From Candidatus Ratteibacteria bacterium (GTDB lineage Bacteria > Ratteibacteria > UBA8468 > B48-G9 > JAFGKM01), in NCBI GenBank assembly GCA_028697565.1, contig JAQVEU010000002.1, positions 1 to 25,784 on the forward strand: a stretch of DNA of 25,784 nt. Reading direction: 5' to 3'. Each line of letters starts with the position of its first letter. The first letter of the stretch is position 1. Below are positions 11,399 through 15,780 of the stretch, piece by piece. The notes beneath the pieces are model-generated. The model did no database searches. It was not told where the DNA came from and saw only the letters and a program-made list of their open reading frames with translations. A program made the position numbers and the translations under genes.

Positions 11399-11401
11399 TC
11401 T

Positions 11402-12211
11402 TCAAGCAAGGACTCCCTGTTTTTCTTTCAGAGAGGCATCAAATATAACCTTTTTAGGACACTCTTCTACACACCTTCCGCAGTTGTCACACTTATTATA
11501 GTCAATGACAGGTAGGTTGTCTTCCATTGTTATTGCCTGTTGGGGGCAAACCTTTACACATCTACCACATCCTATACATCCTGTTTTGCAGGCCTTTATT
11601 ACTATGGGTCCTCTATCATGAGATGAACAGGCAATATAGATATTTTTGTCTGCTGATATAAGTTTTATGATATTTTTGGGACATATGGCAACACACTTAC
11701 CACACCCTGTACATTTTTCACTATCTATTACAGGAAGGTTGTTATCATCCATATAAATTACATCAAAAGGACATATCCTTACACAATCACCCATTCCGAG
11801 ACACCCATAACTGCATTCAAGGTTTGTGTTAAAGAGGCCACTAACTGCATTACATGTCTGAATGGTCTTATATTCAAATCTTCTCTTTGCATTGTTGCCT
11901 CCTGAACAAAGTACCCTTGCCACCTGTCTTTCTCTTTTTTCTGTTTCTATACCTAACAGTGAACATATTTTTTGAATACTTTCATCGGTCATCAGCACAC
12001 ACCTTGATGGTTCTATTTTGCCTTCAGCCATTGCCTCTGCAAAGGCACTACAGCCAGCAAGTCCACAGGCACCACAGTTAGCGTTGGGCATAAGTTCATA
12101 GAGGTTTTTTAATAAAGGGTTTTCCTCTGTTTTGAATTTTATACTAAAGTAGGTAAGAAACGTACCAAAAAAAATTCCCAGACATCCAAGTATAATTACT
12201 GGTATCCACAT
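11402..12211 (-). CDS. rnfB: RnfB-type polyferredoxin subunit (Rnf electron transport complex subunit B)
   Basis: N-terminal TM anchor, PNANCGACG-x-x-GC Fe-S motif, then CSYGCLGMGDCVRICP, CTGCGKCVAICP, CIGCGRCVKVCP and CDNCGRCVEECP. Confidence 0.9.
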   Translation of the reverse strand: MWIPVIILGCLGIFFGTFLTYFSIKFKTEENPLLKNLYELMPNANCGACGLAGCSAFAEAMAEGKIEPSRCVLMTDESIQKICSLLGIETEKRERQVARVLCSGGNNAKRRFEYKTIQTCNAVSGLFNTNLECSYGCLGMGDCVRICPFDVIYMDDNNLPVIDSEKCTGCGKCVAICPKNIIKLISADKNIYIACSSHDRGPIVIKACKTGCIGCGRCVKVCPQQAITMEDNLPVIDYNKCDNCGRCVEECPKKVIFDASLKEKQGVLA

Positions 12212-12214
12212 CTT

Positions 12215-12319
12215 TTATTCCCTCCTGTCCCCTTTAAATATCTTTAGTATACAGAAAATTGTAATATAGAGGATACTACACCATGATAAAACCATAAAGA
12301 AAATTCCACTAGTCCTCAT
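12215..12319 (-). CDS. Unannotated 34-aa single-TM microprotein, probable NSS transporter small subunit (MetS-like)
   Basis: Manual translation MRTSGIFFMVLSWCSILYITIFCILKIFKGDRRE*. The ATG overlaps the NSS stop (ATGA, 12319-12316); the stop ends 3 nt before the rnfB ATG; hydrophobic core of about 22 residues followed by a charged tail. Confidence 0.75.
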   Translation of the reverse strand: MRTSGIFFMVLSWCSILYITIFCILKIFKGDRRE

Positions 12320-13848
12320 ACCTTTTTCTTCTCCCATGCTTTCTTTACCAGAAAACATATTATCAGAAACAGCAACAGAAGAGTAATCCTTGTAAAAATA
12401 ACGACAGGGATATTCTCTTCAGGAATTCCTTTTAGCATAAGTGTTGGTATTGCCTGCTGGTATGTCCAGAAGGCGAGTATAAATAGTAGGAAGAGAGGTG
12501 TTATATACCGGATAATAAATTTATATATCAAAGGAATTTGTATGTCAGAACCGGAATGCATCTCCTCCCATGCCTTATCAATACCGAAGATCCAGGCAAA
12601 GAGTATAGTTTCCACTGTGGCAAATACTACGAGTGCAAATGTTCCCCCCCAGAAGTCAAGTTCATCTACCGCCCCTTTTGAAAGAAAGATGATTGAAATG
12701 TGTGAGAGTATAAAGCATACTACTGCAAATATGGTCACCGCCTTCCTTTTAGAGATATTAAACTCATCCTCAAGGAATGCAATGGCTGGCTGTGCAAGAG
12801 ATATAGAAGATGTAATTCCTGCAAGAAAAAGAAGTAAGAACCATAAAAATGCAAAGAACATTCCTACAGGTAATGTTTTCAATATCAGTGGCATAGTAAC
12901 AAAACCAAGGTCAAATGCACCCTGCTGTGCTACCTCTGATATACCATAAGGACCGAAAAATACATATGCAGCAGGTATCACGATACTTCCGCCCAGTATT
13001 ACCTCGGCAATCTCGTTTGTACTTGCTGCTGTAAGCCCTGAAAGTAATACATCATCATTTTTTGTAAGGTAGCTTGCATATGTAAGTATAACCCCTATTC
13101 CAACGCTGAGTGTAAAAAATATCTGACCTGCTGCTGCCAGCCAGACTCTTGCATCTTTGAGGGCACAGAAATCAGGATTCCAAAGAAATCCAAGTCCATT
13201 GTAAGGTGTCCAGGATATATCAAAAGGGGAGTGAAGAGTGAATGTTCTAACCATAATAACAAGTGCAAGTATGAAGAGTGTTGGAAAGGCTATTCTACAT
13301 ACTCTTTCAATACCTCTTTTAATTCCGAAGAGTACTATAAGGATATTTAAAGCAAATGTTATCAGAAAAAATATATAGGCAGTTATAATTCCTGAAAAAA
13401 ACTCATTTTTTACAATTCCCTGATATCCCCGCAAAAAAGAAACCATCCCTGTTTTATCCACAATACCGGCATATCTTCCTGTGATGGAAAAGAAACTGTA
13501 TCCAAGTAGCCACGACTCTATGTAGATGTAATATATAAATATAACTATAGGTCCAAATATGCCTATTACTCCGAAATACTTTATAAATCTGTTTTTCTGC
13601 CAGAGAGTATGAAATATCCCTGGTGCTGTACCATGTCCAAATCCTCCTCCAAACCTTCCGATGGTCCACTCAATCCACATAAGGGGAATGCCCATGAGAA
13701 AAAGGGCAACAAAATATGGAATCATAAATGCACCACCACCATTTCTTGCTGCCTGAACAGGGAACCTCAAAAAATTTCCCAGACCTATAGCACTCCCTGC
13801 CACTGCCAGAATTATTCCTAATTTACTTCCCCAACGTTCCCTTTTCAT
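12316..13848 (-). CDS. Sodium-dependent amino acid transporter, NSS/SNF family (LeuT-like)
   Basis: RERWGSKLG, AGSAIGLGNFLRFP, NGGGAFMIPY, GIPLMWIEW, GQIFFTLS, NE-x-AEVILGGS and AGITSS. Start reassigned from 13896 to ATG 13848 (GGAGTGG SD, avoids overlap with the upstream gene). Confidence 0.93.
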   Translation of the reverse strand: MKRERWGSKLGIILAVAGSAIGLGNFLRFPVQAARNGGGAFMIPYFVALFLMGIPLMWIEWTIGRFGGGFGHGTAPGIFHTLWQKNRFIKYFGVIGIFGPIVIFIYYIYIESWLLGYSFFSITGRYAGIVDKTGMVSFLRGYQGIVKNEFFSGIITAYIFFLITFALNILIVLFGIKRGIERVCRIAFPTLFILALVIMVRTFTLHSPFDISWTPYNGLGFLWNPDFCALKDARVWLAAAGQIFFTLSVGIGVILTYASYLTKNDDVLLSGLTAASTNEIAEVILGGSIVIPAAYVFFGPYGISEVAQQGAFDLGFVTMPLILKTLPVGMFFAFLWFLLLFLAGITSSISLAQPAIAFLEDEFNISKRKAVTIFAVVCFILSHISIIFLSKGAVDELDFWGGTFALVVFATVETILFAWIFGIDKAWEEMHSGSDIQIPLIYKFIIRYITPLFLLFILAFWTYQQAIPTLMLKGIPEENIPVVIFTRITLLLLFLIICFLVKKAWEKKKV

Positions 13849-13865
13849 CAACCACTCCCACTCTT

Positions 13866-14663
13866 TTATATATTTTTCTTTAACCACTCCACACACTTTT
13901 TATAACCATCTGCCCCTTCTTTTCCTTCATATTCTGCACACCATACACCATCATAACCGCTATCTTTAAGTATATTTATGGCATCCAAGAGTGGTATCTC
14001 TCCTTCACCTAAAACAGTGCCTTTGTAGTTTTCTCTGGAGCCGGTTCCGTCTTTTATATGCGTATGAAAGGCATAAGGGGCAACCTTTCTGTAGATATCA
14101 GGAAGTTCATCAACTTCATATCCATACCATCTGTAGTTCATTGTATCAAGGTTTGTCCCTAAGTGTTTTGAGTTCACCGTTTGTAGAATATCAAGGAGAA
14201 AAGGGTAGTTATTTGTTAGTGTCCCATGGTTATCTAATGCGAGATATACATCTTCCTTTTCTGATATCTCTGTAACCATTGATACACCTTTCAGCACAAG
14301 TGCCTTATAGTCCTTTTCATCCACACCTTCCTTAGGCCACCCGCCATCTATCCGCAGCTGGCTAAATCCAAGGTCTTTTATCATCTTACACATCTCTCCT
14401 ACCATCCATATCTGTCTGTTAAGTTCATCATCTGTTTTTTGTAGAAAGTCACTGCCACTGGATATCTGGGATATTTTGACACCATATTTTTGAAGTAGCC
14501 GTGCAACCTCTGATATGCTATTTTCTGACTTTGCAATATCTGCCCATACATCTTTTCTTTGCAGTTCAACATAACCCACATTGTTTTCATTACACCATCT
14601 AAAAAGTTCTTCAAGTGTTAGATTGGAGATGTTATAGTTAATTACCCCTATCTTCTTATTCAT
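13866..14663 (-). CDS. Sugar phosphate isomerase/epimerase (xylose-isomerase-like TIM barrel)
   Basis: YVEL, ALDNHG, NLDTMN, HTHIKDG, LGEGEIP and CAEYEG. Start reassigned to ATG 14663 (GGGGAG SD). Confidence 0.85.
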   Translation of the reverse strand: MNKKIGVINYNISNLTLEELFRWCNENNVGYVELQRKDVWADIAKSENSISEVARLLQKYGVKISQISSGSDFLQKTDDELNRQIWMVGEMCKMIKDLGFSQLRIDGGWPKEGVDEKDYKALVLKGVSMVTEISEKEDVYLALDNHGTLTNNYPFLLDILQTVNSKHLGTNLDTMNYRWYGYEVDELPDIYRKVAPYAFHTHIKDGTGSRENYKGTVLGEGEIPLLDAINILKDSGYDGVWCAEYEGKEGADGYKKCVEWLKKNI

Positions 14664-14676
14664 TTTCTCCCCCTTT

Positions 14677-15780
14677 TTATGTAAAAAGTCGGGCAATAAA
14701 ACTCTTCTTTACTTTAATCGCTTTATAAGGACAGGCCTCAAAACAGCATAGACAATTTATACACCTTTTGCTGTTAAATTGCAAGTTTTCTGATATTGCC
14801 TTTACAGGACAGACCTCTCTACAGGCATAACACTTCCTGCATATAGCAGGGTCTATAACAGGTATGGCACTGAAATATCGTGCAAAGAAATGTAGAAATG
14901 GCTTAAAAACTCTGGTGGAAAACAATCTGCTGCTCTTCCTTCCTTGGACAATAAAATTTTTCACAGGGATAAGTGTATCACCTACAACTTCTACATCGGG
15001 CAGTCCATATAGGTCTTTGTATATTTTAAGATATGGGACATCATTCGGTTTTACTCCTATCAGATAACAGCATACCATATCCACTGCAACTGCATCACTC
15101 CCTCCGATGAGATAGTTCGTATGCCTTAGGTTTCCCGCAGAAGGTCCATCTCCCTCCATAGAGATAACTGCATCAACCATATTGAAGAACACATATCTTC
15201 TGATTGCTGTATAGTAAGAAACAAGAAAATCAGAAAACTCAAAAGGAGAGACAAATTTGCTGTGCAGTACACTTTTGTGGAATCCAGGTATGAGCCCATA
15301 CAGGTTTTTCAAGGCAGAGGTTATAACTGTAAGGTTGTGCGTCTTCAGTTTGCCTATATTAAATATCTTAAAGTCACGCACATAGTCAGTGACAGGCACC
15401 TGTATTTTTTTACCGGATACATATAGTTCTATCAGTATTGACTTACTGAATTTTACAAGTGGAATACCTGTAATTTCTGATGCATTTTTATATCCACACC
15501 TTTCCCAGTATAATTCTATTGGTTTGTTTATATTGGCAGGGCTATCACCTATGACCTTTTGTGGACAGGGACATAGCCGTACACTTGTTTCAAGCACAGC
15601 AGGATGTGTTGTCACCCCTTCTTCTGGGTACCTTGCTGACAGCATATTGGGCTTGAACAGGACCTTTTCAGGATGTATGGACTGAATACCGGCGAGATGA
15701 AAAATCCTGTTTACTGCCTCTTCAACTACATCTTTTTCATAAGACTCACACCTTGCTACTATAACCTTTTCTTTCATCAT
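14677..15780 (-). CDS. DUF362-domain protein with C-terminal 2x[4Fe-4S] ferredoxin domain
   Basis: VLFKPNML, TTHPAV, GDSP, KLKTH, ALKNLYG, DAVISMEG-x-GP-x-x-G and DAVAVD; C-terminal CRKCYACREVCP and CINCLCCFEACP. Confidence 0.85.
   Translation of the reverse strand: MMKEKVIVARCESYEKDVVEEAVNRIFHLAGIQSIHPEKVLFKPNMLSARYPEEGVTTHPAVLETSVRLCPCPQKVIGDSPANINKPIELYWERCGYKNASEITGIPLVKFSKSILIELYVSGKKIQVPVTDYVRDFKIFNIGKLKTHNLTVITSALKNLYGLIPGFHKSVLHSKFVSPFEFSDFLVSYYTAIRRYVFFNMVDAVISMEGDGPSAGNLRHTNYLIGGSDAVAVDMVCCYLIGVKPNDVPYLKIYKDLYGLPDVEVVGDTLIPVKNFIVQGRKSSRLFSTRVFKPFLHFFARYFSAIPVIDPAICRKCYACREVCPVKAISENLQFNSKRCINCLCCFEACPYKAIKVKKSFIARLFT

Follow-up and report, generated by a model that had tools for sequence, protein, structure and literature searches.

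For the NSS/SLC6 family, LeuT serves as the reference in both structure and mechanism, and it has always been studied as a single chain. Single-pass partners are known for eukaryotic SLC6 transporters, such as collectrin and ACE2 with B0AT1, and other Na+ symporters also have small subunits. In bacteria, MetP of Corynebacterium glutamicum is the closest described case; its activity reportedly requires the small protein MetS, as Trotschel and coworkers are said to have found in 2008. PMC3219685 presents MetPS as a two-subunit NSS importer of methionine and alanine, and PMC5105988 and PMC3219685 cite Trotschel et al. 2008 (doi 10.1021/bi801206t), the primary paper. Curated models for such small subunits are NF033494 (MetS), NF033493 (MetS-like), and PF16951 (MaAIMP_sms).

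The locus described here lies in a stretch of 25,784 nucleotides from a Candidatus Ratteibacteria genome (the window). As in C. glutamicum, a tiny single-helix protein is encoded beside an NSS (PF00209) gene. Unlike the MetPS pair, the transporter in the window belongs to the LeuT clade, and the microprotein does not match NF033494. The comparison with collectrin or ACE2 and B0AT1 is one of concept: each consists of a LeuT-fold transporter with an accessory single TM helix, but collectrin and ACE2 have large extracellular domains and a trafficking role, and no sequence relation to them is expected. The original prediction had proposed a two-component LeuT-type transporter at this locus. Conservation across phyla and a controlled complex prediction now support that proposal, and we regard it as quite probable that the microprotein is the small subunit of the transporter.

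A small open reading frame at the end of a LeuT-type transporter gene

We located the features of the locus on the minus strand of the window, as listed in Table 1. The transporter, P0002, was placed in the NSS/SNF family by its match to PF00209 (E 4e-59). When compared with the PDB, it matched LeuT chains at an E value of about 7e-155 (~520 bits), and the next group, the MhsT-type 4US3, scored 148 bits. The identity to the native Aquifex aeolicus LeuT was 53% over 481 residues, which bears out the earlier description of the transporter as LeuT-like. By likeness to LeuT, its substrate is assumed to be an amino acid. A mechanical list of ORFs puts the transporter start at GTG 13896; we consider ATG 13848 most likely instead, because the alignment with LeuT and the orthologues supports it. 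With the latter start, 17 nt separate the stop of the upstream gene from the transporter, instead of an overlap. At its C terminus, the transporter ORF reads ...K-K-V, followed by TGA at 12318-12316.

Table 1. Features of the transporter-microprotein locus in the window
Feature	Position	Strand	Basis
rnfB-like membrane-anchored polyferredoxin gene (context only)	11402..12211	-	Pfam FeS and several 4Fe-4S domains
34-aa single-helix microprotein gene (P0001), TAA included	12215..12319	-	Translation, orthologues, and A5 profile
AGGAGG, SD of the rnfB-like gene, in microprotein codons 32-33	12221..12226	-	Read directly
TM stretch of the microprotein, codons 6-25	12245..12304	-	Translation; complex model
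ATGA stop/start overlap of transporter and microprotein	12316..12319	-	Also the commonest junction among orthologues
LeuT-type NSS (SNF, PF00209) transporter gene (P0002, 510 aa)	12316..13848	-	Pfam, PDB search, and LeuT identity
Purine-rich SD-like GGGAG...AAGG, in the last transporter codons, 5' of the microprotein start	12320..12335	-	GGAG-type motifs in orthologues

According to the original prediction, an uncalled ORF fills the gap between the transporter and rnfB, overlaps the transporter stop as ATGA, encodes one TM-length stretch with a charged tail, and carries the rnfB SD in its last codons. All four statements held on direct reading of the minus strand from 12319 to 12215. The microprotein ATG (12319-12317) and the transporter TGA (12318-12316) are joined as ATGA (12319-12316), and 34 codons lead to a TAA at 12217-12215, so that the 104-nt gap up to the rnfB-like gene is taken up entirely. 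Residues 6 to 25 are hydrophobic without a break and are followed by a basic tail (K26, K29, R32, and R33). The AGGAGG at 12226-12221 forms codons 32 and 33; the ATG of the rnfB-like gene (12211-12209) begins 3 nt past the microprotein stop and 9 nt past this motif. Two more in-frame ATGs lie 5' of the microprotein start, at 12337 and 12358 on the minus strand, within the C-terminal codons of the transporter. Starts at these positions would yield products of 40 and 47 aa; they are probably unused, since the ATG at 12319 is where the alignment of ~100 orthologues begins.

The exact microprotein sequence was absent from ~15 billion predicted proteins, in agreement with an ORF that has gone uncalled. 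None of the RNA runs searched for the locus contains it; one run carries the label RNA-Seq but is probably DNA, so that its contigs show only that DNA of the locus exists elsewhere. DNA nearly identical to window positions 11400-13786 is present in runs from landfill metagenomes and in one from a biogas fermenter (sampled-word shares of 0.96 and 0.71); the run with the best match may represent the sample from which the MAG was assembled.

The original prediction further proposed that the microprotein relays translational coupling to rnfB. The part of this claim that stands is the position of the SD within the last codons in the window. As a general role it did not hold up, since only 10 of 110 loci have an rnfB-like gene behind the peptide, and one contig, fetched twice, accounts for two of the 10. 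All of these loci belong to the family of the window, in its own genus and two neighboring genera. Because of this small share, we regard the rnfB linkage as a local feature of a tightly packed operon and not as part of a module. No other rnf genes lie within the window.

Conservation and gene neighbors of the microprotein

An open frame of 34 codons after a given ATG has a chance of ~0.085 at the GC content of 38.7%. The ORF in the window is thus not convincing by itself, and conservation decides. In the genome of the window, a 1.09-Mb, 79%-complete MAG, the family profile (A5) retrieved the microprotein (E 4e-12) as its sole strong match. A whole-genome search of 40 relatives recovered orthologous transporters of 64 to 86% identity in three families of the order. 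A conserved ORF behind orthologous transporters, as the original prediction would have it, was found in all 27 order loci with downstream DNA: 26 of them have a collinear ORF of 30 to 47 aa at the transporter stop, detected by pattern, and the 27th (L019) was found by HMM. In L019, the peptide is intact, with its own start, and lies ~650 nt beyond the transporter stop (reverse strand); the insertion between the two contains an ORF for a zinc-ribbon/TM2-domain-like membrane protein.

We extended the comparison with a scan of one genome per species, which gave at least 585 relatives of the transporter, and examined the best 80 (58 to 79% identity). A collinear peptide of 30 to 50 aa was present in 77 of these loci, 74 by pattern and three more (L038, L047, and L105) by HMM. 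The peptide is degenerate in L071, and the flanks of L081 and L085 contain none. The 80 loci come from Omnitrophota, Planctomycetota/Sedimentisphaerales, Zixibacteria, Ignavibacterium, Syntrophales, Elusimicrobiota, Margulisiibacteriota, Auribacterota, and Ratteibacteria, and represent about ten phyla in all.

The orthologue alignments share the consensus M-x-x-S/A-G-W-I-F-M-x-x-S-W-x-x-I-x-x-L-x-x-F-C-x-x-R/K plus a basic tail, in which G5 and W13 are near-invariant. The start codon is ATG, GTG, or TTG, with the first residue always in register, and GGAG-type motifs lie 6 to 14 nt 5' of the start in most orthologues. One variant occurs in one or two genera of the family of the window (L010, L011, L012, L013-L016, and L029); there, a TTG start precedes the transporter TAG by 8 nt, an AAGGAGA motif lies upstream, and there is no ATGA overlap. 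A different arrangement was seen in an Omnitrophota MAG (L105:1489-3129, contig JAQTMD010000093.1), in which transporter and peptide form one ORF of 546 aa reading ...KLAWKK-TTGWIFIVLSWGF..., the ATGA junction having seemingly been deleted in frame. Fusion at the cytoplasmic C terminus would place the peptide the opposite way round from the N-out/C-in orientation that the model predicts. Possible explanations for this ORF are a misassembly, an inactivated gene, or a genuine exception.

Substitution patterns were then compared among the peptide genes. Variable sites follow the order 3>1>2 by codon position in four separate groups. The dN/dS of closely related pairs, a value that the original prediction had listed among its checks, is 0.12 to 0.15; over 324 unsaturated pairs the median is 0.54, and 94% of the values are below 1. 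Across all pairs, pS is 0.80 versus a pN of 0.38, so the DNA is saturated and the amino acid pattern is kept. Judged from these patterns, the microprotein is a protein-coding gene under purifying selection. The contrary reading, that the ORF is a chance frame or a spacer that couples the ribosome to the next gene, can draw on the chance value given above for the window alone and on the SD of the next gene in the last codons of the ORF. It has to contend with the retention of G5, W13, F-C, and the basic tail across phyla, with the coding signature just described, with the number of peptide clusters in metagenomes (see below), and with peptides that are kept despite a different downstream gene or separation from the transporter. 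Moreover, the transporter/microprotein junction matched no Rfam family and showed neither a promoter-like nor a terminator-like site. We therefore consider a nonfunctional ORF highly improbable; conservation across orthologous loci, together with the coding signature, makes it almost certain that the microprotein is a real gene.

A profile built from 25 orthologues matched 658 clusters at E<=0.001 among 1.84 billion representatives. Among the 150 best of these clusters, most members have 30 to 55 aa and align from residue 1. Of the members looked up, the few with a name are labelled "hypothetical protein," and the others are unnamed. A word-index search with the 47-aa alignment row returned six proteins, none of them named. 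In the Protein Atlas, the nearest clusters are again "hypothetical protein" (0.85 to 0.87); one cluster at 0.79 contains 22% PF16951 members, which we treat as a lead only. The curated MetS models do not reach the hundreds of peptide clusters in this family, which have consequently stayed uncalled or "hypothetical."

Six members were also looked up from the peptide side. An NSS gene precedes the peptide in L127, L128, and L132 and probably in L131; no NSS gene comes before it in L129 and L130. In L129 (820-978), member P0046 lies 88 nt behind the gene of an unidentified membrane protein and beside an SSF (PF00474) symporter gene on the opposite strand, with no NSS gene within the 3 kb examined. 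In L130 (72-1000), member P0131 overlaps the end of an S49/SDH-type protease gene. Adjacency to an NSS gene is therefore the rule, but with these two members behind non-NSS genes, the peptide family may extend beyond NSS transporters. An S49-type gene adjoins the L130 member and, in Aquifex (L116:4029-4880), also leuT, a parallel that may be fortuitous or may preserve a vestige of an earlier arrangement.

A further observation concerns a genome (G008, contig C28, L030/L032) in which another NSS transporter, of 34% identity, occupies the same slot and is followed by a canonical MetS-like peptide. The slot is preceded by a conserved gene for a 276-aa protein (13866-14696 in the window), which is 58% identical in G008. 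Judged from these alignments, transporter and peptide appear to have been swapped as a unit, as expected of a cognate transporter-peptide pair.

These neighborhoods bear on the possibility that the microprotein is real but has a role independent of the transporter, as a membrane or stress peptide or as the partner of a downstream product, its adjacency reflecting operon packing. The two members behind non-NSS genes (two of the six approached from the peptide side) would fit such a role, as would the junction to the rnfB-like gene in the window, which is equally tight. The downstream gene varies, however, whereas the NSS gene upstream is constant in the ~105 loci, from many phyla, that have the tight or overlapping arrangement. 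In G008, the different NSS transporter brings its own type of peptide. Furthermore, the complex prediction described below passes, and its controls score zero. A role independent of the transporter is therefore very unlikely in our judgment, and we favor that of a transporter subunit.

Relation to MetS

We compared the microprotein with the curated small-subunit models. P0001 gave nothing at E<=10 with the MetS models, and a six-frame search of the genome of the window with NF033493 and PF16951 did not recover the microprotein locus. None of 25 orthologues matched the curated models, nor did any of five genomes from other phyla at the locus. At the curated cutoffs, the microprotein falls outside NF033493, NF033494, and PF16951. 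The positive controls behaved as follows: the canonical peptide of L030 matched NF033493 at 4e-11, and five of five canonical peptides matched PF16951, though below the gathering score. Because the comparison with the curated models fails, the microprotein is not assignable to NF033493; its kind, the NSS small subunits, is already catalogued. The claim of an undescribed system thus survives in part: the family is one that the curated models miss, but small subunits of NSS transporters were on record in the form of MetS.

In size and topology, the microprotein resembles these subunits, with a length in the range of about 30 to 60 aa, one TM helix, and a basic C-terminal tail; its gene overlaps that of an NSS/SNF transporter in the window and adjoins one in ~105 loci. 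NF033493 and PF16951 peptides likewise have ~30 aa, an M-x-x-[SGA]-[GA]-[WI]-I start, one helix, a basic tail, and a gene that overlaps the end of an NSS gene. They differ in having an invariant mid-helix GG, and their partner transporters are only about 30 to 34% identical to P0002. In the profile of canonical peptides (A6), G12, G18, and G19 are invariant, versus S12-W13 and hydrophobic residues at 18-19 in the clade of the microprotein, which has S-W...I..L in place of the mid-helix G...(W/Y)GG motif. A6 comprises five sequences only (L030 and L123-L126), because canonical MetS-like peptides are rare in the genomes searched: they were found in 1 of 65 genomes of the phylum and in 4 of 151 of the phylum to which G065 belongs.

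A profile-profile alignment by hhalign of the family (A5) with A6 gave a probability of 94.6 and a score of 36.9, with the two aligned collinearly all the way from M1 into the basic tail; the orthologue alignment A2 gave a probability of 95.0 against A6. Among 80 column-permuted controls, the mean score was 11.3 (standard deviation, 3.0), the maximum score was 23.0, and the maximum probability was 52. The reversed control scored 15.6.

Convergence can also make short hydrophobic helices look alike, in which case the microprotein would be a real transporter subunit that is not a MetS homologue but a single-helix partner evolved independently. The failed matches to the three curated models and the mid-helix S-W in the place of an invariant GG point in this direction, as does the score of only ~13 bits that A5 gives to canonical MetS-like peptides. 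Convergence does not account well for an end-to-end hhalign match beyond every permuted and reversed control. In addition, among 140 wider relatives of the microprotein, 14 match NF033493, weakly but as their top and commonest family, and the microprotein shares its gene position, length, orientation, and basic tail with MetS-like peptides. We consider independent origin unlikely. The profile comparisons suggest that the microprotein is probably a remote relative of MetS, on a divergent branch with a changed core motif.

Predicted complex, Aquifex LeuT, and proposed role

To our knowledge, there is no solved complex of an NSS transporter with a small subunit that a prediction could simply reproduce. 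The original prediction had named structure prediction of the complex as one way to evaluate the pairing, and the result supports binding. With alignments of the transporter (A4) and the peptide (A2), three runs scored 0.81, 0.81, and 0.80, and the best of three controls scored 0.00; the value of 0.81 is model confidence from our own alignments and not a measurement. In calibration, 58 of 80 solved complexes passed the mark for this score, as did 2 of 110 mismatched pairs, a scale that is approximate with our own alignments. The runs agreed in at least 98% of contacts, with a partner pLDDT of at least 81.

In the model, peptide residues 5-27 run along transporter TM7. Peptide residues 5-9 contact transporter residues 219-225 in the EL3/TM6a turn on the outside, residues 12-13 contact 42, 46, and 283-284, residues 16-20 contact 276-280, and residues 23-27 contact 269-273. 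The interface also includes the cytoplasmic transporter residues 8-13, 266, and 435-436 and peptide tail residues 30-31; from the orientation, the tail would face these cytoplasmic elements. The modeled orientation is N-out/C-in and fits the positive-inside rule.

By alignment, transporter residues L10, I13, L269, and I280 correspond to L12, I15, L277, and K288 of LeuT. These LeuT residues form a membrane-facing patch on TM1a and TM7 (PMC4052241). According to the calculations there, water that penetrates around K288 imposes an energy cost on the movement of TM1a during inward opening, and this cost was used to explain why K288A improves LeuT transport (PMC4052241). In the peptide-bearing clade, 106 of 108 transporters have F, W, L, V, I, or M at the position equivalent to K288, and two have T (5 of the 108 loci are without an intact separate peptide gene), whereas five LeuT genes of Aquificota that lack a peptide have K or T; since related sequences are not independent, we take this contrast as a signature of the clade, without the weight of a statistical test. 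A hydrophobic residue here fits a helix that covers this face. We also tried clade-specific interface residues as a signal of coevolution and rejected them, as about one-quarter to one-third of the 29 positions differ versus 47% protein-wide. Among the interface positions, only 280/K288 is physically telling.

The original prediction had implied that leuT of Aquifex stands without a small ORF, and we indeed found no family-like ORF within ±2.5 kb of leuT in A. aeolicus VF5. There, an S49 peptidase gene overlaps the end of leuT by 14 nt, and a near-identical Aquifex MAG has the same gene order. Besides VF5, four further Aquificota loci have no peptide beside the transporter: that of this MAG and three others, at which a DUF4149 gene lies 5 to 9 nt downstream of the leuT-type gene. 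Aquifex LeuT (PDB 2A65), which is 53% identical to P0002, keeps most of the predicted binding-face residues, including L12, I15, and L277; it differs in having no peptide gene and, together with its Aquificota relatives, Lys or Thr at 288 versus the large hydrophobic residues of the peptide-bearing clade. In the free tree, the LeuT group of Aquificota, which has no peptide, pairs with the peptide-bearing transporter of L132 as its sister (98/99). The AU test did not reject a topology that gathers every peptide-bearing transporter on one side (p 0.168).

According to our model, the microprotein would act as a 34-residue single-pass "13th helix" of the upstream LeuT-type Na+/amino-acid transporter. 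We infer from the ATGA or tight junction that it is made from the transporter mRNA by termination-reinitiation, so that both chains would arise together and in roughly matched amounts. The complex model and the positive-inside rule suggest that the helix inserts N-out/C-in. It would then pack on lipid-facing TM7, where it is predicted to touch the N-terminal segment/TM1a, TM1b, and the EL3/TM6a turn and to cover the patch equivalent to L12, I15, L277, and K288 of LeuT. By analogy with MetS, which MetP reportedly needs, the likeliest role of the microprotein may be stabilization of the bundle domain, tuning of inward opening, or both. LeuT works alone, so an accessory helix is not intrinsically required by the fold.

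A broader proposal, which we put forward tentatively and hold to be possible but rather doubtful, is that most natural LeuT-type transporters have two subunits and that a family-specific 13th helix at the TM1a/TM7 patch tunes or permits the movement of TM1a. Aquifex LeuT, free of a peptide and with a snorkelling Lys, would then be atypical. For annotation, a new family model would capture the peptide clusters that are now uncalled or "hypothetical." The predicted TM1a/TM7 site matters because LeuT transport rates have already been linked to membrane interactions there (K288A). If the proposal is true, the transporter with and without its 34-aa peptide would offer a simple and testable system. 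And if the closest relatives of LeuT normally carry an accessory helix, gating energetics in vivo may differ from those of the textbook model.
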